From: Candidatus Rokuibacteriota bacterium
GTDB lineage: Bacteria > Methylomirabilota > Methylomirabilia > Rokubacteriales > CSP1-6
Direction of reading: 5' to 3'
Length of the DNA stretch: 45,855 nucleotides
Assembly: GCA_003220195.1 (NCBI GenBank)
Contig: QHRT01000006.1
Location: 1-45,855 of the forward strand
Positions within the stretch are counted from its first letter, which is position 1. Every line of letters begins with the position of its first letter. The position numbers and the translations under genes were made by a program. The notes below the pieces were generated by a model. That model saw only the letters and a program-made list of their open reading frames with translations. It searched no databases and was not told where the DNA came from. Of the stretch, positions 839 to 22,274 are shown one piece after another.

Positions 839-889
839 CGCACCGCGTCATCCTGGCCTGCCCTTTCGCCCGATGTATAATCGAGACAC

Positions 890-2707
<1,818 letters not shown>

Positions 2708-2745
2708 AGTCCGGATCGAGGGCGGGCCGGCGGCGGCCTCGCCCG

Positions 2746-6234: not shown

Positions 6235-6246
6235 GCCCCTGATGTG
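6235..6246. repeat. 12-nt direct repeat copy 1 (GCCCCTGATGTG), immediately after the glmM stop
   Basis: An exact 12-mer is repeated at 6354-6365. See the finding. Confidence 0.6.
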
Positions 6247-6353
6247 CTGACCATGGCTGCACCGATCTCGAGGCGGGCGCCGGGTTCCCTGGCGACTGCC
6301 GAGCGTTGGGGGGTATCGGGGGCCATGACGGGCGCGTCCGCGCGCCCCTCGGG

Positions 6354-6365
6354 GCCCCTGATGTG
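6354..6365. repeat. 12-nt direct repeat copy 2 (GCCCCTGATGTG), immediately before the acpS ATG
   Basis: Exact copy of 6235-6246. The two copies bracket 107 nt of non-coding sequence. Confidence 0.6.
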
Positions 6366-6749: not shown

Positions 6750-6824
6750 CGTGGCGCGCGCCCGCGTGGCCGGCCGCACTCCTCGGCGACCGTTCGTTCC
6801 GACGGGCTGAGCGAGCGGTCGCCG

Positions 6825-8384: not shown

Positions 8385-8401
8385 TCGGCAGCGCGCGCCG
8401 G

Positions 8402-8818
8402 ATGTCGACGGAGACCGTCACGTCGTCTCCGGAGGAGACCGAAGCTCTCGGGGAAAGGCTCGCGCGCACGCTCGATCCCGGAGCCGTCGTGGCGTTGATC
8501 GGCGAGCTCGGCGCCGGCAAGACGTGCTTCATCCGCGGGCTCGTGCGCGGGCTCGGCGTCACGACCGGGGCGACCAGCCCCACCTTCGTGCTCATCAACG
8601 AGTATCGCGGCCGCGTGCTCGTCCACCATGCCGATCTCTACCGCGTCGAGAGCCTGGCGGAGATCGTCGATCTCGGCCTTCCCGAGCTGTTCGCCGCCGC
8701 GGACGCCGTCACGGTCGTGGAATGGGCCGACAAGCTCGGAGCTCTTCTCCCGGCCGACGCGATTCGCGTCCACATCGACGGCGCGGGCGACGAGCCGCGT
8801 CGGATCCGGATCGATTGA
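8402..8818 (+). CDS. tsaE: tRNA threonylcarbamoyladenosine biosynthesis ATPase TsaE
   Basis: P-loop GELGAGKTCFIRGL, SPTFVLINEY, HADLYR. An alternative GTG start at 8381 overlaps the nnr stop (GTGA). Confidence 0.88.
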   Translation: MSTETVTSSPEETEALGERLARTLDPGAVVALIGELGAGKTCFIRGLVRGLGVTTGATSPTFVLINEYRGRVLVHHADLYRVESLAEIVDLGLPELFAAADAVTVVEWADKLGALLPADAIRVHIDGAGDEPRRIRID

Positions 8819-8877
8819 TGGTCTCGGGGGGATGTATCGGATCCGTGGCGTTGACCGGGGCGTAGCGCCCGTCTTAG

Positions 8878-9561
8878 ATGAGAATCGTGAGCATCGGCGA
8901 GTGGCCTTCGGGCGAGCGACCGCGGGAGAGGCTCTACTGGAACGGTCCCCAGGCGCTCGCGGATGCGGAGCTGCTGGCACTCTCGCTCGGCTCGGGCGCG
9001 CGCGGCCGCAGCGCGATCGCGGTCGCGCACGAGATGCTCGCCGCGTACGGCTCGCTCTCGGACGTGATGTCACGCGAGGCGGTGGAGCTCGCTCGCATGC
9101 CCGGCGTCGGACCCGCGAAGGCGGCGCGGCTCGCCGCGACGTTCGAGCTGTCCCGCCGTCTGCGCGCCCGCGTCCCCGGCGTGCGCACGGTGCTGTCCGG
9201 TCCGGCGGAGGTCTATGCGGCGTACGCACCCTTGATGGAAGATCTGAGACATGAGGTGTTCCGGATCGCGCTGCTCGACGCGCAGAACGGTCTCCTGCGC
9301 GATCGCGTCGTCTCGGAGGGGACCCTGTCGGCGAGCCTCGTCCACCCGCGCGAGGTCTTCAAGCCGGCCATCCTGGAATCGGCCGCGTCGGTGATCCTGC
9401 TCCACAACCATCCGAGCGGTGACCCGACGCCGAGTCGCGAGGACATTCGCCTGACGCGCCAGCTCGTCGAGTGCGCGAACATGCTGGAGCTCAGGATCCA
9501 CGACCACCTGATCGTCGGGCGTGGCCGCTTCGTCAGCCTGGCGGAGCGCGGGATCGTCTAA
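8878..9561 (+). CDS. radC: RadC-family JAB-domain protein (UPF0758)
   Basis: ERPRERL N-terminus, HhH segment MPGVGPAKAARL, JAMM-like motif HNHPSGDPTPSREDIRLTRQL. Confidence 0.9.
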   Translation: MRIVSIGEWPSGERPRERLYWNGPQALADAELLALSLGSGARGRSAIAVAHEMLAAYGSLSDVMSREAVELARMPGVGPAKAARLAATFELSRRLRARVPGVRTVLSGPAEVYAAYAPLMEDLRHEVFRIALLDAQNGLLRDRVVSEGTLSASLVHPREVFKPAILESAASVILLHNHPSGDPTPSREDIRLTRQLVECANMLELRIHDHLIVGRGRFVSLAERGIV

Positions 9562-9567
9562 CTCCCG

Positions 9568-9810
9568 CTACCCCTTCGCGAGCTTCTCGACCTCCTTGCG
9601 GGACAGCGTCTGGCAGTGGGCCACCAGCTTCTTGACCTTCCGCTCCGACGTGTGGTCGGCGAGAATCATCTTGCGCGACTGGGTTCCGCTCGCGATGTAG
9701 GCGACCCAGTCGTCGAGGTCCGGGGTGCCGCGGTAGACGACCGTCAGGCCGCTCAACCGCATCCGCCGACGACTTTCCACCTTCGCGAGAGGCTTGCGAC
9801 TGCCGTCCAT
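9568..9810 (-). CDS. Small basic hypothetical protein (~80 aa)
   Basis: The ORF is open to a GTG at 9855. The internal ATG at 9810 is preceded by GAGGG with a 5-nt spacer. I recognise no family. It is convergent with radC, and a candidate promoter lies upstream at 9896-9925. Confidence 0.4.
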   Translation of the reverse strand: MDGSRKPLAKVESRRRMRLSGLTVVYRGTPDLDDWVAYIASGTQSRKMILADHTSERKVKKLVAHCQTLSRKEVEKLAKG

Positions 9811-9895
9811 GAGATCCCTCGTTCTCTCCCGCCGATCACGGACCGCAATGAGCACTGCACGTCTCGTCTTCGCTCTTCGCCGTACGAGCCCGCCA

Positions 9896-9925
9896 ACCTT
9901 ACGAAGCGGATGAAATTTGTGTCAA
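9896..9925 (-). promoter_or_regulatory. Candidate sigma70-type promoter for the small minus-strand gene
   Basis: On the minus strand: perfect -35 TTGACA (9925-9920), 18-nt spacer, -10-like TAAGGT (9901-9896). Confidence 0.4.
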
Positions 9926-10105
9926 GGTCTCGTTTGCCCGCATTCGATGAGGAAATACGTCGCTCACGTTGCGCGCGAGCGCATGAGACGCCGCGATTCC
10001 ACACTTCCCTCCCGCCGTGGACGAACGGACCGTCGTCTTTCGACGCCCTGGCTGCAAACGCGCGTCAGACCGTGCAGTTCGGGCCGGCGTGGATTGATGT
10101 GAATA

Positions 10106-10126
10106 TGTGGACAACCGTGTGGGTAA
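10106..10126 (-). promoter_or_regulatory. Two tandem DnaA-box-like 9-mers
   Basis: Minus-strand reading gives TTGTCCACA (10114-10106) and TTACCCACA (10126-10118), same orientation, 3 nt apart. They lie inside the least GC-rich intergenic region of the window. Confidence 0.25.
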
Positions 10127-10171
10127 CTCCCCGGCGATCGCCGGGCTTGCCCCGGATTTCCGCGAGAATCC

Positions 10172-11167
10172 TCATTTCTGCGCGCGGGCGGCGACCAGGA
10201 CGTCCAGGATCTGCCGCGCGAGAATCGGGCCGCGCGTGATGAATCCGGTGAAGTAGGACACCGCCGTCGCGCCTTCACGCAAGAGCGTCTCGACCTTGTC
10301 CGGCGTGTCGACGCCGCCGGTCGCGATCAGCTGGAGCGATGGACCGAACCTCTTGCGCGTGTTCCGGAGATTCTCGAGCGTCGCCGGAAAAATCTCCGGA
10401 CCCGACAGTCCGCCCGTGCGCTGCGACAGCCGCGGCTCGTCGATGCGCCGCGTGTTGCCGTAGTTGACGATGCGAACGCCGGCCTCGAGCGCGGCCGGGA
10501 TGATCTCGCGCTCGTTGACCTCGGCGAAATCCGGCGAGAGCTTCACGATGAGCGGGCGCGGGGAGGCGTGGCCGAGGCGTTCGAGCACATCGCGCAGCTC
10601 GCGCGGCTTCGAGCTCCACTCGTATACCAGGCGGGTGTTGGGGGAGGAGACGTTGACCTCGACCAGGTCGCCGAGCGGAGCGAGCGAGGTCACGAGCGTC
10701 AGGTAGTCCTCGACCGTCTCTCCGGCGACGCTCACGATCAGCGGCACGCGGTGACGCAGCGCCGCGAGGCGAGGACGGATCTGCTCGAGCCCGGGATTCT
10801 GGAACCCGTTGCAGTTCACCAGCCCCGGGCCGGCGGCGGTGCGCACCCGCACCAGGTTCGGCTCGGGATGTCCGGGGCGCGGATTCGTCGTGATGCTCTT
10901 GGTGGTCACGGCGCCGAATCCGAGACCCATCGCGCGCTCGAGGATCGCGGTGTCGTAGTACTGGGCCGCCAGGATGATCGGGTTCGGCAGCCGCACGCCG
11001 CCCAGCACGGTCTCGAGACGCGGGTCGTCCCTGCGAAAGATCGGCACTCGATCGAACGGGAGAGCCCGGAGGACCGCCTGTCCGAACGCGATCGCTCGGG
11101 GCTCGGGCAACCGACCGAGGACACCGTCGTAGAGCACGCGGTACAGCGCGGCGATCACGCGAGTCAT
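10172..11167 (-). CDS. Dihydroorotate dehydrogenase-like flavoprotein (class 2 architecture, divergent)
   Basis: 331 aa. LPNPIILAAQ, NCNGFQNPG, VNVSSPNT (Ser-type active-site loop), VKLSPDF, GGLSGPEIF, IATGGV. Confidence 0.7.
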   Translation of the reverse strand: MTRVIAALYRVLYDGVLGRLPEPRAIAFGQAVLRALPFDRVPIFRRDDPRLETVLGGVRLPNPIILAAQYYDTAILERAMGLGFGAVTTKSITTNPRPGHPEPNLVRVRTAAGPGLVNCNGFQNPGLEQIRPRLAALRHRVPLIVSVAGETVEDYLTLVTSLAPLGDLVEVNVSSPNTRLVYEWSSKPRELRDVLERLGHASPRPLIVKLSPDFAEVNEREIIPAALEAGVRIVNYGNTRRIDEPRLSQRTGGLSGPEIFPATLENLRNTRKRFGPSLQLIATGGVDTPDKVETLLREGATAVSYFTGFITRGPILARQILDVLVAARAQK

Positions 11168-11276
11168 GGCTGCGATATATCACGTCCCTTGGCTTGACGA
11201 TGTCTCGCGGGCGTGATTACGCTTATGAATAGCGTGAGAGCGCTGCCCATCGTACCCACTGTTCTCGACCGCGGGA

Positions 11277-12452
11277 GTGACCCTGCGCGGTAACTCCGTC
11301 ACCGTCCTGGCGGCCGGCGTCCTCGTGTCGGTCGGCTCGGACATCGAGAGCTTCTGGTCGGCGCTGCTCGCTGGCGTCGATGGCATCACGCCGATCGAAC
11401 GCTTCCCGGTGCACGATTTGCGCGTCGGCCGCGGCGGCGAGATCAAGAAGCTTCCGCTCGCGGCGGAGCGTCTTCCAGATTGTCGCGCCTCGCAGCTCCT
11501 CGTGTGCGCGGCGGAAGACCTTCGGCGTCGTGCGGCGCTCGATTGCGATCGGACGCGCCTCGCCGTCGTCGTCGGAACCGCGCTCGGCGGCGTTGAACAG
11601 CTCGAGGCAGCGCTCGAGGACGGCGGCACGCTTCGACACGCCGCCGGCGCGTTCTACGACAGCCCGGCCCATCGCCTCGCCGGGTGGCTCGGAGCCACCG
11701 GGCCGGTCATCACCGTCTCGACGGCGTGCGCGTCCGGCGCGAGCGCGATAGCGATCGGCGCCGATCTCCTCCACGCGGACGCCGCCGATCTCGTGATCGC
11801 CGGCGGCTACGACGCTCTGTGTCGGTTCGTGATGCGCGGATTCGACGCCTTGCGTGCGCTGACGCGTGACCGCGTCCGGCCCTTCGACCGTCGACGGGAT
11901 GGGTTACTCCTGGGCGAAGGCGCGGGGCTGGTGTTGATGGCGCGCGAGGCCGACGCGCGCGGGCGTGCGCGTCTGGGAAGACTCCTGGGCCACGGCAGCG
12001 GCAGCGACGGCTCGCACGTGGCGGCGCCCGATCCCGACGGGCGGGGTCTCGAGCTCGCCGTGCGCACCGCGATGGCGGACGCCGGCGTCGGACCGGCGGA
12101 CATCGAGATGGTGAGCGCGCACGGGACCGCGACGCCGCTCAACGACCGGATCGAAACCGCCGTGCTCAAACGCACGCTGGGCGCGCGCGCGAGCCAGGTG
12201 CCGGTGAATTCCATCAAGGGCGCCCTCGGCCACACGATGGGCGCCGCCGCGGCGATCGAAGCGATCATGTGCCTGCTCGCCGGGCAGCACGGGGTCGTGC
12301 CGGCCACCGTCGGCCTCGAGGATCCGGATCCCGAGTGCGACCTCGACTGCGTGCGCGGCGATGCGCGGGTCACGCGCGCGCGCGTCAGTCTCAGCACGTC
12401 GCTCGGCTTCGGCGGCTCGAATGCAGCGCTGATCCTGGAGGCGGGCGCGTGA
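11277..12452 (+). CDS. Beta-ketoacyl synthase (FabF/KS-alpha-like, catalytically complete)
   Basis: Cys151 in VSTACASGASAI (TGC at 11727-11729), His motifs AHGTATPLND and GHTMGAAAAIEA, C-terminal SLGFGGSNAALILE. GTG start. Confidence 0.9.
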   Translation: MTLRGNSVTVLAAGVLVSVGSDIESFWSALLAGVDGITPIERFPVHDLRVGRGGEIKKLPLAAERLPDCRASQLLVCAAEDLRRRAALDCDRTRLAVVVGTALGGVEQLEAALEDGGTLRHAAGAFYDSPAHRLAGWLGATGPVITVSTACASGASAIAIGADLLHADAADLVIAGGYDALCRFVMRGFDALRALTRDRVRPFDRRRDGLLLGEGAGLVLMAREADARGRARLGRLLGHGSGSDGSHVAAPDPDGRGLELAVRTAMADAGVGPADIEMVSAHGTATPLNDRIETAVLKRTLGARASQVPVNSIKGALGHTMGAAAAIEAIMCLLAGQHGVVPATVGLEDPDPECDLDCVRGDARVTRARVSLSTSLGFGGSNAALILEAGA

Positions 12453-13252
12453 GCGGAGCGCGCGTCGCCGCCGTCGGCGTCCTGACCGGCTGGGGCGAGG
12501 GGATCGGAGCGCTGCCCGACGATGCCGAGCGCGCCGCCGCCGGCCGTCCGATCCTGCCGCTGCGGATCCCGCCGCGACCGGGCGAACGGTTCCGCCGCGC
12601 CACCCGTGAATGTCTGCTCGGTCTCGCGTCGGTCGAGGCCATGCTCGAGGACGGCGGCCTCGGTCGGGACGCGATCGCCGGCGACCGCTCGGCCCTGGTG
12701 TTCGTGACGGCGGCAGCATACGGTTCGGCCAATCGCGCGTTCATCGAGTCGACGACCACGGGCGCGGCGCTCCATTTCCCGTACACGGCGCCGAGCGCCG
12801 TGCCGGCGGAAGTGGCGATCGAGTTTCGCCTGACCGGCCCGTATGTCATTCTGATCGGAGGCGCCGCGGCCACCGTCGACGCGCTCTGGCAGGCGTCGAC
12901 GCTCGTCGAGCGTGGCGTCGCCGACCGCGCCGTCGTGCTGGCGGTGGAGACGTTCGAGGAATGCGGGAGCCTGTATGCCCGCGGACGGTGGCTCTCCAGG
13001 CGACCGCTCGTCGAGGCGGCCGCCTCGGCGCTGCTCGTCGCCGCGCGGGAGAAGCCGGTGTACCGACGGTCGCGCGCCGCTCGAGCGGGCATGGAATCGA
13101 CAAGACGCCGTGCGGGTGAGACGCTCGCGTGCGAGCCACTCATCTCGCTGGCGCTCGCGCGTCAACGGGGACACCCGACCGACGTGTCCGGCCAGTGGCG
13201 CGGTCAGGTCGCCACGTTGTCGTGGCCGGCCGTCGCAAGTCAAAGAGACTAG
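12449..13252 (+). CDS. Truncated ketosynthase-like protein without catalytic triad (chain-length-factor-like partner)
   Basis: GTG 12449 overlaps the KS stop (GTGA). ~267 aa with a KS N-terminal-like fold. The active-site Cys position reads ILIGGAAATVDAL. No HGT or GH motifs. Confidence 0.7.
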   Translation: MSGARVAAVGVLTGWGEGIGALPDDAERAAAGRPILPLRIPPRPGERFRRATRECLLGLASVEAMLEDGGLGRDAIAGDRSALVFVTAAAYGSANRAFIESTTTGAALHFPYTAPSAVPAEVAIEFRLTGPYVILIGGAAATVDALWQASTLVERGVADRAVVLAVETFEECGSLYARGRWLSRRPLVEAAASALLVAAREKPVYRRSRAARAGMESTRRRAGETLACEPLISLALARQRGHPTDVSGQWRGQVATLSWPAVASQRD

Positions 13253-13265
13253 GAGCACCGGAACC

Positions 13266-13541
13266 ATGGAGCCCAAGGAGACCGTCGACGAGCTGAAGTC
13301 GATCCTGGTCACGCGTCTCAAGTTCGAGCCGCGGCGCGCCGCCGAGATCACGCTCGACACCCCTTTGCCGAAGGGCGTCGAGGGCTCGATCGGCCTCGAT
13401 TCGCTGGACTTCATCGAGCTGTCGCTCGCGATCGAGGAGCGCTTCGGCGTCGTGCTCGACGAGTCGCAGGATCTCGTCAAGCACTTCGCGACGATCGATT
13501 CGCTGAGCCGGTTCATCGCCGCGCAGGCCGGAGGCTCATGA
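13266..13541 (+). CDS. Acyl carrier protein
   Basis: 91 aa. AGGAG lies 10 nt upstream of ATG 13266. Phosphopantetheine attachment motif GLDSLDFIEL. Confidence 0.88.
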   Translation: MEPKETVDELKSILVTRLKFEPRRAAEITLDTPLPKGVEGSIGLDSLDFIELSLAIEERFGVVLDESQDLVKHFATIDSLSRFIAAQAGGS

Positions 13542-14719
13542 TTCGAACGGTCGTCACCGGCCTCGGCGTGACGAGCCCCTTCGGCGCCGGGACGAAAGCG
13601 TTCTGGACCGGGGTTGCCGGTGGAACCTGCGCGATCCGGCCGATCACGCTGCTGGACACTGATGGCTTCCGCTGCCGGATTGCCGCCGAGGTGCCGGCCG
13701 ATGCGCTCGCCGGCTCGCCCCGCCGCTCGCGCGCCGACCGCCTGGCGCTCGCCGCCGCGCGCGAAGCGATCGCGGATTCCGGGCTCGCTCGCGCCGACTG
13801 TCGCGACGCCGGCCTCGTCATCGGCGCGGTGGGCGGCGGGATGTTCGAGGCCGAGAAGTGGTACTGGGCGCGGACGCGCGGCGGCGCTCCCGTCGATGCC
13901 GCGTCGTCGTTGCGCGCGGTCTTGCCCTTTTCCCACGCCGAGACGCTCGGCAAGGCGCTCTCGCTCGGCGGGCCGCGCGAGACGGTGGTCGCCGCGTGCA
14001 GCTCCGGAGCGGTGTCCCTCGCCCTCGCGCGGGATCTCATCGAGGACGGCCTGGCGACGGTCGTCGTCGCCGGCGGCGCCGACTCGGTGACGCGGATCTG
14101 CTACATGGGGTTCAACGCGCTCCGACTTCTCGATCCCGAGCCGTGCCGGCCGTTCGACCGCGAGCGTCGCGGGATGTCGATCGGTGAGGGCGCGGCGTTT
14201 CTCGTGCTGGAAGACGCCGAGCACGCGCGCGCGCGCGGCGCTTACGTCTACGCGGAACTCTCCGGCTACGGCATCACGACCGACGCCTTTCATCCGACGT
14301 CGCCTCATCCGGAGGGTGACGGCATGGTGCGCGCCATGCGAGGCGCGCTCTCGGACGCCGGCATCGGGCCGGCGGAGGTCGGCTACGTCAACGCCCACGG
14401 AACCGGCACGCCGCAGAACGATCGCGTGGAGGCGCGGGCGATCGCGCGCGTGTTCGAAACGGGCGAACCGCTCGTGAGCGCCACGAAGTCGATGATCGGC
14501 CACACGATGGCCGCCGCGGGCAGTCTGGAGACGGTCGCGACGATCCTGGCGATCGTCGAAGGCGTCGTTCCTCCGACCGCAAATCTTTGTGCAGCCGATC
14601 CCGACGTCACGTTCGACTGCGTCCCTGGCACGGCGCGCACGGCCGCGATCGATTGCGCGATCTCGAACTCGTTCGGTTTCGGTGGTCAGAACGTCACGCT
14701 CGTGTTCCGTCGGTCATGA
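13538..14719 (+). CDS. Beta-ketoacyl synthase (second catalytically complete KS)
   Basis: ATGA overlap with the ACP gene. VVAACSSGAVSL (Cys), AHGTGTPQND, GHTMAAAGSLE, SFGFGGQNVTLVF. Confidence 0.92.
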   Translation: MIRTVVTGLGVTSPFGAGTKAFWTGVAGGTCAIRPITLLDTDGFRCRIAAEVPADALAGSPRRSRADRLALAAAREAIADSGLARADCRDAGLVIGAVGGGMFEAEKWYWARTRGGAPVDAASSLRAVLPFSHAETLGKALSLGGPRETVVAACSSGAVSLALARDLIEDGLATVVVAGGADSVTRICYMGFNALRLLDPEPCRPFDRERRGMSIGEGAAFLVLEDAEHARARGAYVYAELSGYGITTDAFHPTSPHPEGDGMVRAMRGALSDAGIGPAEVGYVNAHGTGTPQNDRVEARAIARVFETGEPLVSATKSMIGHTMAAAGSLETVATILAIVEGVVPPTANLCAADPDVTFDCVPGTARTAAIDCAISNSFGFGGQNVTLVFRRS

Positions 14720-15801
14720 GCGGGGCCGCCACCCGGAGAGTCGCGATCACGGGGTGCGGCACGGTCAACGCCGCGTTCGTCGGCGGCGTTCCTGAGCTCT
14801 CGACCTACCTCGAGCATCCGGAGAGTCGCGTTCGCGCGGAGCCATCGACGGAGCCGGGCCTCGTCGCGTCGGTCGACGACCGCGCCCTCGACGGACTGAC
14901 CGACGCCGGCGACCAGCGCCGCGTGTCCCGCATCAGCCGCTTCGCGATCGCGGCCGCCAGGCTGGCGCTCGCGGACGCAGACGCTCCACCCGAGGATCTG
15001 TCGCTCGTCGTCGGCACGGAGCTCGGAGATCTCAGGTCGACGAAGGAATTCGCGAACGGGTTCCTCGAGCGCGGCCCGACCGGATTGTCCGCGCTGCTCT
15101 TCCCGAACACGGTGATGAACACGATGGCCGCGGCAACCGCGATCGCCGTGCAGGCGCGCGCGGCGACGCTGACGCTGAACGCGCCGGTCGTCGCCGGTGA
15201 GCTGGCCATCGCGCGCGCCGCCGCCGGCATCGCCGCCGGCCGCTTCGAGCTGGCGCTCGCCGGAGGCGTCGACCAGATCGAGCCGATCACGGAGCTCGCG
15301 GCCGGCGGCGACGCGCGCGGAGAGGGCGCGACGTTTCTCGTGCTCGAGCCGCTCGAAAAGGCGCGACAGCGCGGCGCGCGCGTGTTCGGCGAGATCACCG
15401 GCTGGGGGTGGCGCGCGCTGAACGCGCCGCCGTGCGGTGTGGGCCGCGCCGAGCCGCCGCGCGCCGTCCTCCTGGCGCTCGAGCGAGCCGGCCTCGCCGG
15501 CGATGCGGTCCGGTGGGTGTACGACTCGGCGACGCTCGATCGAGAGCGCGACGACTGGGAGCGCGCGCTGCTCGACGTGGCATTTCCCCATCATCCGAGG
15601 CGCGTGTCGCTCGGCCGATGGCTCGGCCGCCACGGGGGGCTTGGCGCGCTGTCCGTCGCGGGCGCCGCGTGGAGCGCGTGTGCCGGGCGACTTCCGGCGC
15701 TCGGCGGCGCGATGTCCGCCGATCGCGGCGTGGGGCTGGTCCATGGCGTGGCGCGTGGGGGAACGCACGTCGCGCTCGTCGTCGGCGCGCCCCTTCCATG
15801 A
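14716..15801 (+). CDS. Full-length ketosynthase homologue lacking Cys-His-His (second chain-length-factor-like partner)
   Basis: ATGA overlap with the preceding KS. The KS fold is recognisable (GEGATFLVLEPLEKARQRGARVFGEITGWG), but the active-site position reads LNAPVVAGE and no HGT or GH motifs are present. Confidence 0.75.
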   Translation: MSGAATRRVAITGCGTVNAAFVGGVPELSTYLEHPESRVRAEPSTEPGLVASVDDRALDGLTDAGDQRRVSRISRFAIAAARLALADADAPPEDLSLVVGTELGDLRSTKEFANGFLERGPTGLSALLFPNTVMNTMAAATAIAVQARAATLTLNAPVVAGELAIARAAAGIAAGRFELALAGGVDQIEPITELAAGGDARGEGATFLVLEPLEKARQRGARVFGEITGWGWRALNAPPCGVGRAEPPRAVLLALERAGLAGDAVRWVYDSATLDRERDDWERALLDVAFPHHPRRVSLGRWLGRHGGLGALSVAGAAWSACAGRLPALGGAMSADRGVGLVHGVARGGTHVALVVGAPLP

Positions 15802-16895
15802 ACGGCATCCTGATCGTCATTCCGGTGTTCGACGAAGAGCCCTCCATCGGGGCGGTCGTCGCCGGTGCCGGACAGCACGGCCCGGTGCTCGTGGTCGACG
15901 ACGGCTCGACCGACGGAAGCGGCGCCGTCGCCCGGAGCGCGGGGGCCGAGGTGGTGCGACATCCGCGTCGCCTGGGAAAGGGCCAGGCCATCCGAACCGG
16001 GCTCGCCTGCGCGCGGGCGCGAGAAGCATCGGTGATGGTGACCCTCGACGGTGACGGGCAGCACGATCCGCGCGACATCGCTCGGCTGCTCGGCGCCGCG
16101 GAACGGTCGCCCGGCGCCATCGTGATCGGCAATCGCCTGGCCACGCTGGCGGATGGGGGCGGTGATCGCGAATCCGCCTTCGACGGCGGCCGCGCGGGAA
16201 AGCTGTCGTGCGGTCGCCTGAATGCGAACCGGGTCGCAGGATTCTTCGCGCACTGGATCAGCGGGCTCGGGATCAGCGACACACAGTCCGGGTTTCGCGT
16301 CTATCCGATGAAGCTCTTCGACGCCGTTCGCCCGCGGGCGGGCGGCTTCGTCTTCGAGACCGAAGTCCTGCTCGATGCGGCTCTGCAGGGATGGCCCATC
16401 GTCGAAGTCCCGGTGGCGGCGCTGCCGCGCTTCACGCGTCGTAGCCGGTTTCGCCCTTTACTCGACGGCACGGCGGTCGCTCGCTGTCTCGGGCGCCGTT
16501 CGATCAGGCGCTGGCGTACGGAGGTCCGGGACGCGCTGCGCGAGATCCGCAACGTCGTTGGCGCCGACCGTCGACGCGCACGGCACGCCGCCGTCCTCGA
16601 GCGCGCGCATCCCTACGCGGGCTCGTTTCCCGCGTGGAGCCTCGCGGTCGGCGCCGGCGCCGCGGACTTCGCGATCGATGGTCTCGCCGGCTGGTGGCAG
16701 CATCCACGGGTGCGCCGCGCGCTGGTCGTCGGCCGCGGCACCGCGGCGTTGCCACTCCTGGCCGGGGTCGCGGCACTGCAGGCCATCGCGGGCCGGATGA
16801 TGCCGGACCTCGTGAGCCCGCTGGTGGCCCGCTTCTGCTCCTGGGAACGGTTCGAGATCGGACACTCGATCGATGAGGGAGCACGACCGCGATGA
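15798..16895 (+). CDS. Family 2 glycosyltransferase (polyprenyl-phosphate sugar transferase-like, ArnC/GtrB/DPM1 type) with C-terminal membrane segment
   Basis: ATGA overlap. IVIPVFDEEPSI, VVDDGSTDGS, LDGDGQHDP, QSGFRVYP. Hydrophobic C-terminal helices. The tracked ORF start at 15408 is an Arg-rich extension overlapping the previous gene. Confidence 0.85.
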   Translation: MNGILIVIPVFDEEPSIGAVVAGAGQHGPVLVVDDGSTDGSGAVARSAGAEVVRHPRRLGKGQAIRTGLACARAREASVMVTLDGDGQHDPRDIARLLGAAERSPGAIVIGNRLATLADGGGDRESAFDGGRAGKLSCGRLNANRVAGFFAHWISGLGISDTQSGFRVYPMKLFDAVRPRAGGFVFETEVLLDAALQGWPIVEVPVAALPRFTRRSRFRPLLDGTAVARCLGRRSIRRWRTEVRDALREIRNVVGADRRRARHAAVLERAHPYAGSFPAWSLAVGAGAADFAIDGLAGWWQHPRVRRALVVGRGTAALPLLAGVAALQAIAGRMMPDLVSPLVARFCSWERFEIGHSIDEGARPR

Positions 16896-18178
16896 ACGCG
16901 ATCGCCACCCGCCGTCTCGGATACGACGTGGCGGTGGTCGGCGGCGGTCCCGGCGGCGCAACCACCGCGGCATTCCTGGCCCGGAGCGGATTCAGTGTCG
17001 TCCTGTACGAGCGTGAGCTCTTTCCCCGGTTTCACATCGGGGAGTCGCTGCTGCCCGCCATGCTGCCGCTGCTCGATCGTCTCGGAGTTCATGAGACCGT
17101 CGCGGAGCGCGGCTTCCAGGTGAAGTACGGCGCCATGTTCAGCGACCAGGAAATGAATCTCGAGCAGACCTATTACTTCCTGCGCGACCGGGCCTGGCCG
17201 AACTACTCCTATCAAGTGCCGCGCGCGGACTTCGATCAGATCTTGCTCGAGCACGCGCGCAAGAGCGGCGTCGACGTGCGACAGCCGGCGACGGTGGACC
17301 AGGTGTCGTTCGATGCGGACGGCGTCGTGGTCTCCGGCACCGAGGACGAGCGAGCGTTCACGACGCGCGCGGCCTTCCTGGTCGACGCGAGCGGTCGCGA
17401 CGGCTTCGTGACCGCGAGAAGAGGCCGACGAGATCGCGTCCCGAATCTTGGCAAGGTGGCGCTCTTCGCGCATTTCCGCGGCGCGCACCGCCTGTCCGGC
17501 ATCGACGAAGGCAACATCCGCATTCACGTCTTCGAGGACGGGTGGTTCTGGTGGATCCCGCTCTCGGGAGACCTGACGAGCATCGGCTGCGTCCTTCACG
17601 CCAGGACGGTGCGCCAGCACGCGGAAGCCATCGAAGATCTGCTCCAGACGATGATCGGCCGGTGCCGGCGCGTCGCCGCCGGTCTCCAGTCTGCCGAGCG
17701 GGTCACGCCGGTACGCACGGCCGCGAATTTCGCGTACGTGAACCGCCCGGTCATCGGGGATCGCTTCCTCGCCGTCGGAGACGCCGTCGCGTTCGTCGAT
17801 CCGATCTTTTCGGGTGGCGTCTTCATCGCCATGAAGTCGGGAGAGCTGGCGGCCGAGGCGATCGGCGCGGCGCTGCGCGACGGGCGCTTCGAGAAACGCC
17901 GCTTTCGCCGCTACGAACGGCACGTCTGGCGAGGCGTGACGCCGTTCTTCCGCTTCATCCACAAGTATTACGAGCCGGCGTTCCTCGAGCTCTTCTTAAA
18001 ACCGTCGAACCGGCTCGGCATGTTCGAGAGCGTGCTGATGGTGCTTTCGGGCGGCGCGTTCGACGGACTCACGTGGCCGCGGCGCCTGGCCCTCGAGGTG
18101 CTGTTCACGTCGGCGCGCATCAACGTCTGGCGGCGTCGGCGCGCCGGGCAAGCCGTCGAATCACGTCTCGAATGGTAA
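16892..18178 (+). CDS. Flavin-dependent halogenase (FAD-dependent oxidoreductase family)
   Basis: ATGA overlap. GxGxxG (VVGGGPGGA), FPRFHIGESLLP, Lys78 in GFQVKYGAMF, WxWxIP motif GWFWWIP at nt 17543-17560. Confidence 0.75.
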   Translation: MNAIATRRLGYDVAVVGGGPGGATTAAFLARSGFSVVLYERELFPRFHIGESLLPAMLPLLDRLGVHETVAERGFQVKYGAMFSDQEMNLEQTYYFLRDRAWPNYSYQVPRADFDQILLEHARKSGVDVRQPATVDQVSFDADGVVVSGTEDERAFTTRAAFLVDASGRDGFVTARRGRRDRVPNLGKVALFAHFRGAHRLSGIDEGNIRIHVFEDGWFWWIPLSGDLTSIGCVLHARTVRQHAEAIEDLLQTMIGRCRRVAAGLQSAERVTPVRTAANFAYVNRPVIGDRFLAVGDAVAFVDPIFSGGVFIAMKSGELAAEAIGAALRDGRFEKRRFRRYERHVWRGVTPFFRFIHKYYEPAFLELFLKPSNRLGMFESVLMVLSGGAFDGLTWPRRLALEVLFTSARINVWRRRRAGQAVESRLEW

Positions 18179-18271
18179 TGACTCGGAGCGGGGCGATGCC
18201 CCGATTGCGCGGGCAAAGCCCGCGCTCGGAATGGCCAGTACGGGTTCACCGTCGTCGGCATCGCGATCGGC

Positions 18272-19399
18272 GTGGCCGGACTCGTCGCGCTCGGCGCGAT
18301 GGCCGGGCGGATCGTTCGATTCATCGAAGGCGGCGACCGGTTCGTGCTCGGCCAAATCTCGGTGGCCGGGCGTGGGCTCGGCATGGGGACCGGGTTCACC
18401 GCCGGAGGCCTCTTGCCCGCGTCCACCATCGAGCGCATCGCGCGTGTCCCCGGCACCGCCGGCGTTCAGGCGCAGGTGATGCTGCCGCTCGATCCGAGCA
18501 CGTCCCAGTTCATGACGTTGACGCAGGAGCTGGTGCTCGGGGTCGATCTCTCCGTCCCGACGCCGAACCGGTATTACCGCGCCCTCGCCGTGCGGACCGG
18601 CCGGTTTCTGCGCCCGGGCGATCGCGGCGTCGCGGTGGTCGGCGCGTCGTTCGCCGTGTCTCACGGGCTCTTCGTCGGGTCCCGCCTGACGCTCGAGAAG
18701 ACCGCCTACGAGATCGTCGGCGTGCTCGAACGCACGCTCACCGCGCCGGATCGGTTCGTGATCCTCTCGATCGAAGACGCTCGCCAGCAATGGGTCGCGA
18801 AGGACCCGATGCTGCGCACGCTGCTCGCGTCGGGCGCCGCGCCGATGACGGCGAGCGATCTCAACACGGGCGCGGCGGTCGGCTGGCGCGACGGTGAAGA
18901 TCCCGATGCCGTCGCCCGGCGGATCATCGCCGAAGTGCCGAACGTGAACGTGCAGATCCCGAGCGAGCTGTCGCGGCTCCTGCGTTCGTCGACGGCGTTC
19001 TTCTCCGCGCTGGTGGTGGGCATCGGCGCGCTCGGCTTCGTGATCGGAGGACTGAGCCTGGCGAACACGGTCGCCGCGTCGGTGTTCGAGCGCATCCGCG
19101 ACTTCGGCGTGAAGCGCGCGCTGGGCGCGACCGGCTTCGATTTGGGGCGCGAGGTGCTGGCCGAGGCGCTGACGATCACGCTCTCCGGAGGGCTCGGCGG
19201 CATCCTGCTGGCGCTCGTCATCGGTGGCGCGGTGGATCGGTACGCCGCGCGGACCGGACAGGAACTGTTCCTCTTCTCGGCGCGACTGGTCGGTGGCGCG
19301 ATCGTGTTCGCCGTCCTGCTCGGCGCCGTGGCGGCGGGCTACGCGACGCTGCGCGTGACGCGGCTCAGTCCGGCCGAGGCGATCCGGCGTGGAACCTGA
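18272..19399 (+). CDS. ABC transporter permease, FtsX/MacB family (N-terminus unresolved)
   Basis: C-terminal FtsX domain (FGVKRALGATGFDLGREVLAEALTI plus 3 TM helices). The first in-frame start (GTG 18272) falls inside the predicted first TM helix. See the finding. Confidence 0.8.
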   Translation: MAGLVALGAMAGRIVRFIEGGDRFVLGQISVAGRGLGMGTGFTAGGLLPASTIERIARVPGTAGVQAQVMLPLDPSTSQFMTLTQELVLGVDLSVPTPNRYYRALAVRTGRFLRPGDRGVAVVGASFAVSHGLFVGSRLTLEKTAYEIVGVLERTLTAPDRFVILSIEDARQQWVAKDPMLRTLLASGAAPMTASDLNTGAAVGWRDGEDPDAVARRIIAEVPNVNVQIPSELSRLLRSSTAFFSALVVGIGALGFVIGGLSLANTVAASVFERIRDFGVKRALGATGFDLGREVLAEALTITLSGGLGGILLALVIGGAVDRYAARTGQELFLFSARLVGGAIVFAVLLGAVAAGYATLRVTRLSPAEAIRRGT

Positions 19400-20082
19400 T
19401 GCTGCGAACGACGGGCGTCGTGAAGTCCTACCGGTCGCCGGCGGGCGCCCGCCTCGGTGTGCTCTCCGGCATCGACGTCCAGGTGGATCGCGGTGAAGTC
19501 GCGGCGATCGTCGGCGCGTCGGGCTCGGGCAAGAGCACGCTGCTGAACGTCCTCGGGTTGCTGGAAAGGCCCGACGCCGGCGACGTCTGGTACGACGGAG
19601 AGCGTGTCACCGCGCTCGGCGCGTCCGCCCAGAGTCGCGCGCGCGGCCGGTTCGTCGGCTTCGTCTTCCAGTCGTTCTTGTTGTTGTCGGGGCTGACCGC
19701 GGTCGAGAACGTCCTGCTCGCGGCACGCTACCGCGGTGGCATCACGCGCCGGACGCGCGACCGCGCGCGGCAGCTGCTCGCCGAGGTCGGCATGCTGGAG
19801 CGCGCGGCGCACTATCCAACAGAGCTCTCCGGGGGCGAGCAGCAACGCGTGGCGTTCTGCCGCGCGGTCCTCAACGATCCGCCGCTGGTGCTGGCGGACG
19901 AGCCGACCGGCAACCTCGACGACGCGAACGCCTCGATCATCCTGGATCGTCTCGTCGCGCGCGCGCGCGCCGGCACGGCCGTCGTGCTCGTCACCCATCG
20001 ACACGACGTCGCCGATCTGGCCTCGGTCGTGTTCCGGCTGGAGGGCGGACGGCTCGAGCGCCGTGACCGTCTCGCTCGCTGA
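19399..20082 (+). CDS. ABC transporter ATP-binding protein (MacB/LolD-like)
   Basis: Walker A GASGSGKST, Q-loop, signature LSGGEQQRVAF, Walker B LVLADEPTGNLD. The start overlaps the permease stop (TGATG). Confidence 0.93.
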   Translation: MLRTTGVVKSYRSPAGARLGVLSGIDVQVDRGEVAAIVGASGSGKSTLLNVLGLLERPDAGDVWYDGERVTALGASAQSRARGRFVGFVFQSFLLLSGLTAVENVLLAARYRGGITRRTRDRARQLLAEVGMLERAAHYPTELSGGEQQRVAFCRAVLNDPPLVLADEPTGNLDDANASIILDRLVARARAGTAVVLVTHRHDVADLASVVFRLEGGRLERRDRLAR

Positions 20083-20098
20083 GTCAGGAGACCCGCCA

Positions 20099-20470
20099 AT
20101 GATGAAGACCCTGGTGCTGGTGGCGATCGCGTCCGTCGTCGGAGGGAGCGGTCACGTGTTGCTCGCGAAGGGCATGAGATCGATCGGCGACCTGACGGAG
20201 GCTCCATCCTCGCGTCTCGGCGGCATGGCGCTCGGAGTCGTGTCCAACCCGTGGGTGCTGCTGGGCGTCCTCCTCCAGGCGTCGTTCTTCGCGATGTATC
20301 TGGCGCTCCTGTCGCGGACCGACGTGAGCAAGGTCCTGCCCATGACGGCGATGGACTACATCGTGGTGGTGCTGCTGGCCCAGGTGGTTCTCGCCGAACC
20401 CGTCACCCCGGTCCGGTGGCTCGGCGTGGCCATGGTCTGCGCGGGCGTCCTGACAGTGTGGCGGAACTGA
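20099..20470 (+). CDS. Small 4-TM EamA/DMT-type membrane protein (ArnE/ArnF-like size and topology)
   Basis: 123 aa. AGGAG lies 8-9 nt upstream of ATG 20099. Four hydrophobic helices. The tracked ORF start at 19736 overlaps the ATPase gene and was rejected. Confidence 0.65.
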   Translation: MMKTLVLVAIASVVGGSGHVLLAKGMRSIGDLTEAPSSRLGGMALGVVSNPWVLLGVLLQASFFAMYLALLSRTDVSKVLPMTAMDYIVVVLLAQVVLAEPVTPVRWLGVAMVCAGVLTVWRN

Positions 20471-20472
20471 GG

Positions 20473-21159
20473 TCAGTCGCCCAGGAGTCCGGCGACCGTG
20501 GTGAGAGCGTAGCCCTCGTCCTCGAGCCCGGCGATCATCTCGGGAAGCGCCCTCGCCAGTCGCTCGGGCGCGCCTCGCGTGCCTTCGCCGTCGTGGAGGT
20601 CCACGATGGCGCCCGGGTGAATCCGCCGGACGACGAACCGGGCTTGCGCGTCCGCGCCGACGGCACGAAGCCCCTCCGGCTGCACGGACCACAGCACGCA
20701 CCGCAAACGGTGACGGTCGAGCGCGCCGGGCATTGCGGCATTCATCATGCCCCAAGGCGGACGGAAGTGCCGCGGCGTCACGCCCGTCAACGAACCGAGC
20801 AGCTCGTGCGTACGCTCGATCTCCACCGCGGTCCGCCGCGGCCCGCAGAGCCAGAGCGAGGGATGCGACCAGGAGTGGTTCGCGACCTCGTGGCCGTCAG
20901 CGGCGATCGCGCGGACGACGTCGGGAGCGCGTTCGGCTCGTTCGCCGATCAGGAAGAAGGACGCGCGCACCCGGTGCTTGTCGAGGATCTTCAAGATCGT
21001 GGGCGTCCAGTGCGGATCCGGTCCGTCGTCGAACGTGAGCGCGACGCGCCGGGCCGTCGACGGAGCCCGTCGCACCGTGCGGGGGCCCGAGACGTGAGGC
21101 CACCACGCGTAGCGGATCCACGCGACTCCAAGAGCGGCGGCCGCGTAGCCCACCTTCAT
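20473..21159 (-). CDS. Polysaccharide deacetylase (NodB homology domain, CE4)
   Basis: VALTFDDGPDPHWTP, HEVANHSWSHP, N-terminal TM/signal anchor. ATGA overlap with the upstream GT28 gene. Confidence 0.88.
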   Translation of the reverse strand: MKVGYAAAALGVAWIRYAWWPHVSGPRTVRRAPSTARRVALTFDDGPDPHWTPTILKILDKHRVRASFFLIGERAERAPDVVRAIAADGHEVANHSWSHPSLWLCGPRRTAVEIERTHELLGSLTGVTPRHFRPPWGMMNAAMPGALDRHRLRCVLWSVQPEGLRAVGADAQARFVVRRIHPGAIVDLHDGEGTRGAPERLARALPEMIAGLEDEGYALTTVAGLLGD

Positions 21160-22274
21160 TCGCGGCCCAGGACGATGCGTGCGATGCGCCGCGCGGCGTA
21201 CGGCTGTCGCGCGGAACGAATCCGCTCGCGAAAGTGCTCGAGCAACGCGGGATCACCGAGCGCCTGGTCGAGCGCGCGCGCGAGCTCCTCCGGAGAGCGC
21301 GCGACGAGCCCGAACCCCGTACGCGCCACGAATCTCTCGTTCCGTCGCTCCTGACCCGGCAACGATCCGAAGAGCAGCATGGGCAGCCCCGCGGCGATCG
21401 CTTCCGCGACCGTCATGCCCCCGGCCTTCGTCACCAGCAAGTCCGCGGCGGCCATGAGCGTGCGCACCTCGCTGACGTGTCCGAGGACACGCGTGCTGCT
21501 GCCCGTCGTCAGCCGACGAAGACGTTCGGAGAGCTCACGATTGCGGCCGGCGAGCAGCAGCCCTTCGACTGGATGGTCGGGCCGCGTGAGCGCCTGCGCG
21601 ACCTCCGGAAGCCTTCCCAGCGACGCCTCGGAGCCGGCCATGGCAAGCACGACTGGCTTTCCAGCGGGAAGACCGAATCGGGCGCGCGCCTCTCCGACGT
21701 CGAGCGGCTCGTCGAACTCCTCGTGGACCGGGACGCCGGTGACGACGATGCGCTCGGGCGGGATCCCGCGGGCGATCAGCTCGTGCCTCACCTCTTGCGC
21801 GGCGACACAGTACCGATCGATCCCCGGCGCCAGCCACTGGCGATGCGCGATGAAGTCGGTGACGACCGTCGTGTGCGCGGGAACGCGATGGCCCTGGGCG
21901 ACGAGCGAGTCGAGGGCGATTGCCGGTGTCGCGTGTGTCGTCACGATCGCGTCCGGCGCGAGGCGATTGATCAGCCGCGTGAGGCGCGCCGTGCCAAGCC
22001 GCGTGACTCCAAAGGTGAGGGGGGAGTCGCTCTCCATGCGATCGCCGAGCTCGTACGCGAAAGCCCAGATCCACGGCGCGCGCCGCAGGAGCGCGTAATA
22101 GAGTGCGCGGGTGCAGCGCTCGAAGCGCGGGTCGACGAGCTCGCGAAAGTGATCCACGAGGACGGTGGTGGCGCCCTCGCGCTCGAAGGCTCTGGCGAGG
22201 CTCCGGGCCGCTTCGTTGTGACCGGAGCCATAGCTGGCCGTGATGATCAGGATCCTCATGTCGTCCCGCCTCAT
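21156..22274 (-). CDS. GT28 glycosyltransferase of the MGDG-synthase / diacylglycerol glycosyltransferase (UgtP-like) family
   Basis: MRILIITASYGSGHNEAARSL N-terminus, C-terminal GT-B motif LVTKAGGMTVAEAIAAGLPMLL. An alternative start at 22259 is possible. Confidence 0.85.
   Translation of the reverse strand: MRRDDMRILIITASYGSGHNEAARSLARAFEREGATTVLVDHFRELVDPRFERCTRALYYALLRRAPWIWAFAYELGDRMESDSPLTFGVTRLGTARLTRLINRLAPDAIVTTHATPAIALDSLVAQGHRVPAHTTVVTDFIAHRQWLAPGIDRYCVAAQEVRHELIARGIPPERIVVTGVPVHEEFDEPLDVGEARARFGLPAGKPVVLAMAGSEASLGRLPEVAQALTRPDHPVEGLLLAGRNRELSERLRRLTTGSSTRVLGHVSEVRTLMAAADLLVTKAGGMTVAEAIAAGLPMLLFGSLPGQERRNERFVARTGFGLVARSPEELARALDQALGDPALLEHFRERIRSARQPYAARRIARIVLGRE

Follow-up and report, generated by a model that had tools for sequence, protein, structure and literature searches.

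What is made by a locus that encodes two ketosynthase pairs, an acyl carrier protein, a glycosyltransferase, a halogenase and an exporter, with none of the reductive enzymes of a polyene pathway? The question is raised by a group of twelve genes in a stretch of 45,855 nucleotides from a Candidatus Rokuibacteriota bacterium (contig QHRT01000006.1, positions 1 to 45,855; GC content about 70%), referred to here as the window. To our knowledge, the Rokubacteria (phylum Methylomirabilota) are abundant in soil, and none of them has been brought into culture. We think it somewhat probable that the locus is a reduced envelope-lipid cluster, derived from a type II polyketide synthase (PKS) of the aryl polyene (APE)/xanthomonadin superfamily, and a core chromosomal operon in Methylomirabilota. 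Its product is plausibly a halogenated, sugar-bearing (acyl-aminosugar) envelope lipid.

The genes in the window were called from mechanical open reading frames (ORFs), with third-position GC filtering and scans against Pfam and NCBIfam. Ten genes of the locus are on the + strand, and the NodB and MGDG synthase genes converge on them:

11277-12452, + strand: KS1, an active ketosynthase (KS) of 391 residues, with the N- and C-terminal ketoacyl-synt domains of Pfam
12449-13252, + strand: dKS1, a short inactive KS-like partner of 267 residues, with the N-terminal KS domain only (30 bits)
13266-13541, + strand: a dedicated acyl carrier protein (ACP) of 91 residues, with a PP-binding domain
13538-14719, + strand: KS2, an active ketosynthase of 393 residues, with both Pfam KS domains (N and C)
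14716-15801, + strand: dKS2, an inactive KS-like partner of 361 residues, with a weak match to the N-terminal KS domain
15798-16895, + strand: a family 2 glycosyltransferase (GT2) of 365 residues, with one C-terminal transmembrane (TM) helix (Glycos_transf_2)
16892-18178, + strand: a predicted flavin-dependent halogenase of 428 residues (Trp_halogenase, 113 bits)
18182-19399, + strand: a MacB_PCD/FtsX permease with 4 TM helices and a damaged 5′ end (MacB_PCD 52 bits, FtsX 48 bits)
19399-20082, + strand: an ATP-binding cassette (ABC) ATPase, LolD/DevA/MacB-like (ABC_tran, 112 bits)
20099-20470, + strand: a small 4-TM EamA protein of 123 residues (EamA, 33.5 bits; hydropathy profile)
20473-21159, − strand: a NodB-family de-N-acetylase (Polysacc_deac_1, 120 bits)
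21156-22274, − strand: an MGDG_synth/GT28 glycolipid glycosyltransferase, UgtP-like (MGDG_synth, 96 bits)

An earlier, sequence-only reading of the window had named the same contents downstream of the KS genes (a GT2, a halogenase, an FtsX permease with its ATPase, a 4-TM EamA-like protein, NodB and GT28), and the gene junctions that it described are also present. Stop and start codons overlap as GTGA at 12449, as ATGA at 13538, 14716, 15798 and 16892, and as TGATG at 19397-19401, and these six overlaps point to translational coupling of the operon genes. The stop codons of the EamA and NodB genes converge with 2 nucleotides between them. The NodB and MGDG_synth genes overlap by 4 nucleotides (21156-21159), and the second is translationally coupled to the first. 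The ACP gene occupies the 3′ portion of a mechanical ORF that is longer than the gene. A scan for promoters and terminators gave no signal exceeding that of shuffled sequences.

The two active ketosynthases contain the expected motifs (TACASG, HGTATP and GHTMGAA in KS1; AACSSG, HGTGTP and GHTMAAA in KS2). The catalytic residues are Cys149, His282, a lysine and His318 in KS1, and Cys154, His287 and His322 in KS2, and the Cys-His-Lys-His set is invariant among 47 KS1 and 64 KS2 orthologs. The triad is missing from the two partners, as the sequence-only reading had it, and from all 49 dKS1 and 59 dKS2 orthologs. In dKS1 an alanine occupies the position of the cysteine, and the His/Lys region is missing together with the whole C-terminal half. 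In dKS2 the cysteine is replaced by valine (threonine in most orthologs) and the first histidine by serine. The best PDB folds for the AlphaFold model of dKS1 (pLDDT 86.6) are chain-length factor (CLF) subunits, those of Iga12 (6kxe_B), AntE (6smo) and the actinorhodin system (1tqy_B). With hhalign, dKS1 matches dKS2 at 93-95% and dKS2 matches KS2 at 99.9%. ApeC of the APE system is also a short inactive CLF partner (240 residues), and dKS1, with 267 residues, no active site and CLF-like best folds, was considered as its ortholog. This was rejected (no match with BLASTP, 0.2% with hhalign), and by hhalign dKS2 is not related to ApeC either.

Neither active ketosynthase is a FabF equivalog by the curated cutoff. 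In NCBIfam, KS1 scores 288.1 bits with fabF and 287 bits with PRK09185 (the ApeO family), and KS2 scores 356.2 and 288 bits. The cutoffs are 493.75 bits for the FabF equivalog (TIGR03150) and 407 bits for PRK09185, with which E. coli ApeO scores 556 bits. An assignment of KS1 and KS2 as FabF was therefore rejected on these cutoffs (288 and 356 vs 494 bits). In searches of the PDB, the top scores for both proteins are with FabF-type enzymes and with the heterocomplex 9s5h, the actinorhodin KS is under FabF, and ApeO is the lowest among the reference KS proteins. The best matches of KS2 are Thermus thermophilus FabF (282 bits) and 9s5h chain B (277 bits). The same chain is the best solved-structure match for KS1, at 241 bits; entry 9s5h (chains B and C) is a recent heterocomplex of two '3-oxoacyl-ACP synthases'. 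In a small neighbor-joining tree with bootstrap, the KS1 and KS2 clades are each supported at 100/100 and span all three cluster types described below, and the KS1 clade adjoins ApeO.

The ACP contains the GLDSLDF motif, with the serine at position 46. Its best NCBIfam match is PRK09184, the ApeE family (43.9 bits, with a cutoff of 70 and 89.5 for ApeE itself), followed by AmcB. The BLASTP score is 54 bits with ApeE (35% identity) and 27 bits with E. coli AcpP, and of the two, ApeE appears to be the nearer relative.

The halogenase has GGGPGG at residue 17, a catalytic lysine in GFQVKYGA and WFWWIP at residue 218, all of which align with halogenases in the PDB. The matches there are ChlB4 (219 bits), CndH (209), Mpy16 (208), PltA (200) and CmlS (178). 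Variant B flavin halogenases act on carrier-protein-tethered substrates. They were recognized here by a GxGxxG motif, a catalytic lysine about 60 residues downstream, WxWxIP, and PltA, CndH, ChlB4 and Mpy16 as the closest relatives; on these features the protein is predicted to be a genuine flavin-dependent halogenase of the variant B (carrier-protein-dependent) class. Its assignment as a geranylgeranyl reductase or as a QhpG- or LodB-type oxidoreductase was rejected, as halogenases score 180-219 bits compared to 57 bits for geranylgeranyl reductase, and the lysine and WxWxIP are present.

For the GT2, the best NCBIfam match is PpgS (110 bits), followed by AglJ and ArnC (ArnC 25 bits vs a cutoff of 529), and the best PDB match is ArnC, a weak one. 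The protein is 28% identical to the GT2 domain (N-domain) of E. coli ApeJ (66 bits), and PpgS is the best NCBIfam match of ApeJ itself. The GT2 is predicted to belong to the lipid-phosphate-sugar-synthase type (PpgS/AglJ/ArnC/ApeJ-N-like), which makes a head group of lipid-phospho-N-acetylhexosamine (HexNAc) likelier than glycosylation of the polyketide. Of the earlier proposal of an envelope lipid, the association of KS/CLF pairs and an ACP with a GT2, a halogenase and an exporter holds, as does the plausibly halogenated, sugar-bearing product; the transfer of sugar to the polyketide by the GT2 is not supported.

The same core is found in other phyla. Clusters of two types came to light when the full-length dead KS of L058, a distant locus, was used as the query of a search and the neighborhoods of its relatives were inspected. 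They occur in Tectimicrobiota, in 'Deltaproteobacteria' and 'Proteobacteria' metagenome-assembled genomes (MAGs) and in an 8-Mb genome, and the flanking genes differ each time. Identity to the window is 53-59% for KS1 (loci L072-L077), 48-55% for KS2 (L058 and L072-L077), 39-51% for dKS1, 33-40% for dKS2 and 43-48% for the halogenase. In type A (L073, from the 8-Mb genome, L075, L076 and L077) the order is LipAAT-KS1-dKS1-ACP-KS2-dKS2-halogenase, with an AMP-ligase and its ACP, ApeD, ApeF, ApeG, ApeI, a methyltransferase, LolA, MMPL and DUF3261 in addition. The GT2 of type A is of the ApeJ type, 50-53% identical to E. coli ApeJ, and L077 further contains an ApeP-like dehydratase (DH) and a ketoreductase (KR). 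Type B (L074, from Tectimicrobiota, L058 and L072) consists of the core, a GT2 like that of the window (39-42% identity), the halogenase and an HpnR-like B12 radical S-adenosylmethionine (SAM) protein, and also carries MMPL/LolA and a GT4. Both types, all of them uncharacterized clusters, have the orthologous core in the same order as the window. In comparison, the Rokubacterial type has a MacB pump, EamA, PMT_2, HpnJ, NodB and MGDG synthase instead of their additional genes. Together with the KS1 and KS2 clades, the clusters L073, L075 and L077 establish that the core shares its ancestry with bona fide APE-type clusters.

The suggestion that the locus fits neither established template, and could be an undescribed family, was therefore overstated. 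The same core, at 33-59% identity, is located inside APE-type clusters of other phyla, and the pattern of a KS, a half-CLF, a GT2 like dolichyl-phosphate-mannose synthase and a halogenase is that of xanthomonadin (PMC3691225). Among characterized systems, xanthomonadin-type clusters are the nearest to the locus. In a study of the yellow-pigment cluster of Lysobacter enzymogenes OH11, with the Xanthomonas pig locus compared (Wang et al. 2013, PMC3691225), the KS in xanthomonadin-type clusters is always followed by a protein of about 275 residues that is like the N-terminal half of a CLF, the dolichyl-phosphate-mannose-synthase-like GT2 adjoins this pair, and the ACP is free. A flavin halogenase is present in the Xanthomonas cluster, and the product is a lipid-bound polyketide of the outer membrane. 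Likened by this published description, the window shares the adjacency of KS2, dKS2, GT2 and halogenase, and KS1 with its 267-residue dKS1. The xanthomonadin clusters have further genes that are not in the window, for a KR, two FabA/Z-type DHs, an acyltransferase, XanB2 (a 3-/4-hydroxybenzoic acid synthase), a ligase and LolA/RND export. On the other hand, the two KS/dead-KS pairs, the MacB-type ABC pump, the ArnE/F-like protein, NodB and the UgtP-like glycosyltransferase set the window apart from xanthomonadin.

In the synthesis of APE lipids, ApeJ joins N-acetylgalactosamine to the phosphate of a glycerolipid, after which it forms an ester between this sugar and the polyketide carried by ApeE (bioRxiv 10.1101/2020.12.19.423268). 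With the APE clusters of E. coli CFT073 and Xenorhabdus doucetiae (apeA-R), the window shares a KS1 that is as near to ApeO as to FabF and, it appears, an ApeE-like ACP. The two halves of ApeJ would have separate counterparts, the GT2 of the window resembling the N-domain and the Lip_A acyltransferase of relatives matching the C-domain (60 bits; this gene is not in the window). The scheme of APE lipids, with a lipid-phosphate-HexNAc head, esterification of the chain from the ACP to its sugar and export to the outer membrane, would thus be open to such a locus. The halogenase has no equivalent in E. coli APE, and export would be by a MacB-type ABC pump rather than by MMPL/LolA. No characterized cluster matches the whole locus, in agreement with the sequence-only reading, and no description of the locus was found among the searchable papers that deal with Rokubacteria and ketosynthases, halogenases or aryl polyenes.

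KR, DH, enoyl reductase (ER), thioesterase, ligase, cyclase and LolA/MMPL genes, which that reading had found lacking in the locus, are absent from the entire window (Pfam; tblastn with Ape and Fab proteins). There are no homologs of ApeB, D, G, H, I, K, L, M, N, P or Q in the window by tblastn, no AMP-binding or chorismatase-like gene for activation of an aryl starter by Pfam and tblastn, and no cyclase or aromatase among the window genes. The ApeL/M/N export set (LolA-like, MMPL and DUF3261) is also not in the window, which has the MacB_PCD/FtsX permease and ABC ATPase instead. Neither a KR (ApeQ) nor a dehydratase (ApeI/ApeP) was found within 10 kb in about 55 Rokubacterial loci, and neither KR nor DH is found within 10 kb of the type B clusters.

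A gene set of this kind could also be that of a minimal aromatic type II PKS, in which an unreduced poly-β-ketone cyclizes to a phenolic (resorcinol/pyrone-type) lipid head that is then halogenated and glycosylated. The KS/CLF pairs and ACP without KR or DH, in type B clusters as well, would be consistent with this, and so would the halogenase, as enzymes of its class require a substrate that is electron-rich, either aromatic or enolic. However, no cyclase, aromatase or oxygenase is present. The active-site glutamine of CLFs is found in neither dKS1 orthologs, which have Ala, Pro or Gly at the position of the cysteine, nor dKS2 orthologs, which have Thr or Val. Moreover, the actinorhodin KS scores (171 bits with KS1 and 220 bits with KS2) are below those of FabF, and the orthologous type A cores accompany KR and ApeI/ApeP dehydratases. 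We consider an aromatic PKS very unlikely.

Within Methylomirabilota, the locus is not an orphan, as it had been called, and it is found phylum-wide at a fixed chromosomal site. More than 900 homologs of dKS2, mostly in Rokubacteria, and more than 1300 of dKS1 were found; the named ones are from Candidatus Rokubacteria/Methylomirabilota, with some labeled 'Binatia'. In a sample of neighborhoods on contigs of up to 476 kb and 62 species-level genome loci, the locus is at the same site in about 55 Methylomirabilota species. The conserved order (variable genes in parentheses, genes of the opposite strand marked −) is pyrD (−), a DUF8321 lipoprotein, (Lip_A_acyltrans), KS1, dKS1, ACP, KS2, dKS2, GT2, halogenase, FtsX, ABC, (small periplasmic protein), EamA, (PMT_2), (HpnJ), NodB (−) and MGDG synthase (−). 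The flanking genes are strongly co-conserved in these relatives. Of the 28 loci with full coverage, 27 or 28 contain the core genes, with the halogenase in all 28 and EamA and NodB in 27 each. The accessory genes are more variable: DUF8321 is present in 25 of the 28 loci, PMT_2 in 24, the small protein in 23, HpnJ in 22 and the acyltransferase in 19. The window is the sole locus that lacks all five (the acyltransferase, PMT_2, HpnJ and the two periplasmic proteins). In two independent contigs, one 99% and the other 68% identical, KS1 likewise comes straight after pyrD. Locus L060, from an 'Actinomycetes' MAG, was not used as independent evidence because of its many frameshifts and near-Rokubacterial identities.

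The permease gene of the window is damaged. Its frame is open from 18182, but the first in-frame start codon is GTG 18272, which falls midway through TM1, and the conserved TM1 is encoded upstream of this GTG. In a 99%-identical contig (L070), 83 bp (9086-9168) are present where the window has 2 bp (18237-18238), a net loss of 81 bp. The missing stretch contains the FtsX ATG and the first 11 codons (MLGRRSLRLARS). The strain may really carry this deletion, or the assembly may be collapsed at this point. A second lesion of the indel type is located in ilvD (33771-35401), which consists of two overlapping ORFs in different frames, with the ILVD_EDD_N domain divided at about 34475, which points to a frameshift; sequence errors or gene decay should thus be kept in mind for the window. 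Its copy of the locus is the most degraded version seen, and with the FtsX start codon lost and the most stripped gene set, the strain may have a pathway that has decayed in part.

These observations bear on whether the genes form a functional unit at all, as they could be together by vertical inheritance alone, in an operon that is decaying in this strain. Most of the co-conservation is from one phylum, where the flanking radC and pyrD are equally conserved, and the loss of five accessory genes and the FtsX start codon, together with the frameshifted ilvD elsewhere in the window, would fit such decay. The six start/stop overlaps with the translational coupling that they imply, the recurrence of the core order across other phyla with different flanks, and the intact catalytic residues all argue against it, and we find this explanation highly improbable.

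The exporter is of the MacB/LolCDE type (type VII), with a MacB_PCD and 4-TM FtsX permease and a separate ATPase. The ATPase scores 195 bits with LolD and 157 bits with DevA, both under the cutoff. The relatives encode two further proteins here that are not in the window. One is a DUF8321/8322 protein with a lipobox (LSAC), for example at 4855-5625 of L005, and the other a signal-peptide protein of 132-139 residues that adjoins the MacB pump (L003, 15450-15869; L001, 16010-16408). These could be LolB- and LolA-like partners in lipid export, respectively.

The remaining genes raise the possibility of remodeling of lipid A or lipopolysaccharide. Here the KS pairs and ACP would produce an unusual fatty acid, for instance a very long one, with the help of housekeeping FabG, FabZ and FabI, an LpxL-type acyltransferase would install this chain, and the GT2, NodB, EamA and PMT_2 proteins would form an Arn-like pathway for an undecaprenyl-phosphate-linked aminosugar on lipid A. 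There are precedents in the rhizobial AcpXL/FabF1XL/FabF2XL/LpxXL proteins, in ArnC/D/E/F/T, and in Bordetella Lgm and Francisella Flm. The scores of the ketosynthases with FabF equal or exceed those with ApeO and the actinorhodin KS, and a locus without KR, DH and ER would fit the borrowing of type II fatty acid synthesis (FAS II). The acyltransferase of the relatives belongs to PF03279 (Lip_A_acyltrans), and most relatives carry PMT_2, which, like ArnT, is a GT-C enzyme. The resemblance to Arn, Lgm and Flm systems thus includes an ArnC-like GT2, a NodB-family deacetylase (ArnD belongs to the NodB family), an EamA protein that resembles the ArnE/ArnF flippase subunits, and the ArnT-like PMT_2. 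However, all of these scores are far under the curated cutoffs (27 and 20 bits for EamA with ArnE and ArnF, compared to 92 and 99), and PMT_2 and the acyltransferase are not in the window. The acyltransferase scores better as PatA, a sugar O-acyltransferase (94 bits), than as LpxL (61 bits), and matches the C-domain of ApeJ; the ACP appears to resemble ApeE more than AcpP. Moreover, the core is orthologous to the cores of complete APE-type clusters, and the carrier-protein-type halogenase, universal in the locus, has no role in this model. We know of no Arn system that includes a PKS-like core and a halogenase. Remodeling of lipid A therefore appears unlikely to us.

A hopanoid product is suggested by the radical SAM genes of the relatives. 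An HpnJ equivalog (755 bits vs a cutoff of 578) follows the PMT_2 GT-C gene in L005 (17463-18893) and in 21 other Rokubacterial loci, and its combination with the GT2 and NodB parallels the logic of HpnI, HpnK and HpnJ, that is, addition of N-acetylglucosamine (GlcNAc), deacetylation and ring contraction to a cyclitol. In type B, the B12 radical SAM gene directly follows the halogenase gene (13498-15006 in L058, 13513-15027 in L072 and 13514-15013 in L074). The L058 protein scores as an equivalog of HpnR, the hopanoid C-3 methylase (846 vs a cutoff of 650 bits), and the three proteins are 75-78% identical to one another.

The GT2, NodB and HpnJ could then act on bacteriohopanetetrol (BHT), where the same three steps would give a cyclitol ether and the KS, ACP and acyltransferase would add a halogenated acyl chain to the aminosugar or cyclitol. 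Besides the two equivalogs, the model has in its favor that N-acylglucosaminyl-BHT and BHT cyclitol ethers are known lipids. On the other hand, HpnJ is not in the window, nor in 6 of the 28 loci, and shc and hpnH/G/C/D/E were not found within 10 kb in any examined locus. The GT2 has no match with HpnI, and the score with HpnB is only 22 bits. In a recent survey, the 'HpnR' proteins of Methylomirabilota and Myxococcota form a separate clade of possibly independent origin (bioRxiv 10.1101/2025.07.29.667474). The type B genes may belong to that clade, and its separation suggests that the radical SAM enzymes may act on the product of their own cluster; those of type B may methylate the cluster's own lipid. 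We regard composite-hopanoid tailoring as quite unlikely, and both it and the lipid A model rank below an APE-type origin.

Radical SAM genes are also found next to more distant KS relatives. The Geobacter loci L061-L067 (30-34% identity) are in 'ladderane-type' TIGR04072 clusters that carry a KR, thioesterases, LolA/LolB and MMPL, and serve here as context only. One of them, L063 (Geobacter sp. UBA6169, a non-anammox organism; 679-15169), encodes distant KS/dead-KS relatives, a PatA-like acyltransferase, a pentapeptide protein and three B12 radical SAM proteins, one of them an equivalog of TIGR04072 ('lipid biosynthesis'). The other genes include a FabD-like acyltransferase, a KR, two 4HBT thioesterases, LolA, LolB and MMPL.

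Returning to the reduced APE-type cluster, the pathway that we favor, with a moderate degree of confidence, is one from which the reductive loop, the starter ligase and the Lol/MMPL exporter have been shed. From the fold, the dead active sites and the pairing of the genes, we infer that KS1 with dKS1 and KS2 with dKS2 form two KS/CLF heterodimers. Both would extend a chain with malonyl units on the ApeE-like ACP, with malonyl groups provided by housekeeping FabD and holo-ACP by the AcpS encoded 5 kb upstream. As neither KR nor DH is encoded, β-keto processing would be borrowed from FAS II, or else the chain would be partly unreduced. The variant B halogenase would chlorinate or brominate an electron-rich (aryl or enolic) intermediate tethered to the ACP. 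By analogy with the ApeJ N-domain and PpgS, the GT2 would move HexNAc to a lipid phosphate to give the lipid-phospho-HexNAc head, and NodB may de-N-acetylate the head sugar. In most relatives, the Lip_A/PatA/ApeJ-C-like acyltransferase would esterify the ACP-bound chain onto this sugar; as its gene is missing from the window, the attachment step would here occur in trans or be lost. The MacB-type ABC pump would extract the lipid toward the outer membrane in place of ApeL/M/N, assisted in the relatives by the periplasmic protein and the lipoprotein.

Several observations weigh against this assignment, which is drawn from family membership, conservation and synteny. KS1 and KS2 are under the cutoff of the ApeO family and the ACP is below that of the ApeE family. 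In view of the hhalign result, dKS1 is an analog of ApeC and not its ortholog. The GT2 has just 28% identity to ApeJ, and the type A clusters use a different, ApeJ-type GT2. The acyltransferase for attachment of the chain is missing from 9 of the 28 loci as well as from the window. The KR, DH, aryl-starter ligase, thioesterase, ApeD, ApeG and LolA/MMPL set is absent from the window, and was also not found within 10 kb in the roughly 55 Rokubacterial loci, so that the locus alone cannot make a polyene. Finally, NodB and MGDG synthase appear tied to the operon by synteny in one phylum only. Matches of the NodB gene to the NodB, PdaB and PgdA families are all under the cutoffs, and MGDG_synth/GT28 scores 241 bits with diglucosyl-diacylglycerol synthase, compared to a cutoff of 500.

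The locus is flanked by housekeeping genes on both sides, hpt-SPOR, ftsH, folP, cdaA, glmM, acpS, nnr, tsaE, radC and pyrD upstream, and a TAXI-type binding protein, an AAA protein, NYN, PHP and mqnA downstream, followed by a sugar ABC importer, a MaoC pair, ilvD, queG, def and others. The acpS gene (holo-ACP synthase) is at 6306-6749, with glmM close by. In an unusual fusion, the hypoxanthine phosphoribosyltransferase-like protein at 2-838 carries a SPOR (septal peptidoglycan-binding) domain at its N terminus. At 31557-32533, 9 kb downstream of the locus, there are two hotdog proteins whose genes are translationally coupled. One is of the MaoC type (159 residues) with a D-x-N-x-x-H hydratase motif, its partner (166 residues) lacks the motif, and the pair resembles a HadAB-like (3R)-hydroxyacyl dehydratase. 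It could serve as a trans-acting dehydratase, and no link to the locus was found.

Aryl polyenes are the most widely distributed biosynthetic gene cluster family in bacteria, and the locus indicates that this family has descendants without KR and DH and with a different export machine. Its points of interest are the phylum-wide fixation, the architecture without KR and DH, the swapped export system and the embedded HpnJ/HpnR-like genes. As it occupies one fixed, housekeeping-flanked site in essentially every sampled genome, the product is probably a constitutive component of the envelope and not an optional pigment. As a halogenated acyl-aminosugar lipid, it would be a candidate biomarker for the environment. 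A broader proposal, which we put forward tentatively and rate as rather doubtful, is that Methylomirabilota and the type B clusters make a new class of core envelope lipid, in which a halogenated, ACP-built chain, made without dedicated reductive enzymes, would be esterified to a lipid-phospho-hexosamine (in most relatives an HpnJ-made aminocyclitol) and exported by a Lol-like MacB system. If so, a descendant of APE lipids would have left the role of an accessory pigment for that of a structural lipid throughout the phylum. The radical SAM genes that score as HpnJ and HpnR in these clusters matter for the inference of hopanoid structures from genes. Were the same proposal true, these 'HpnJ' and 'HpnR' equivalogs would act on non-hopanoid lipids and would confound gene-based surveys of hopanoid biomarkers.

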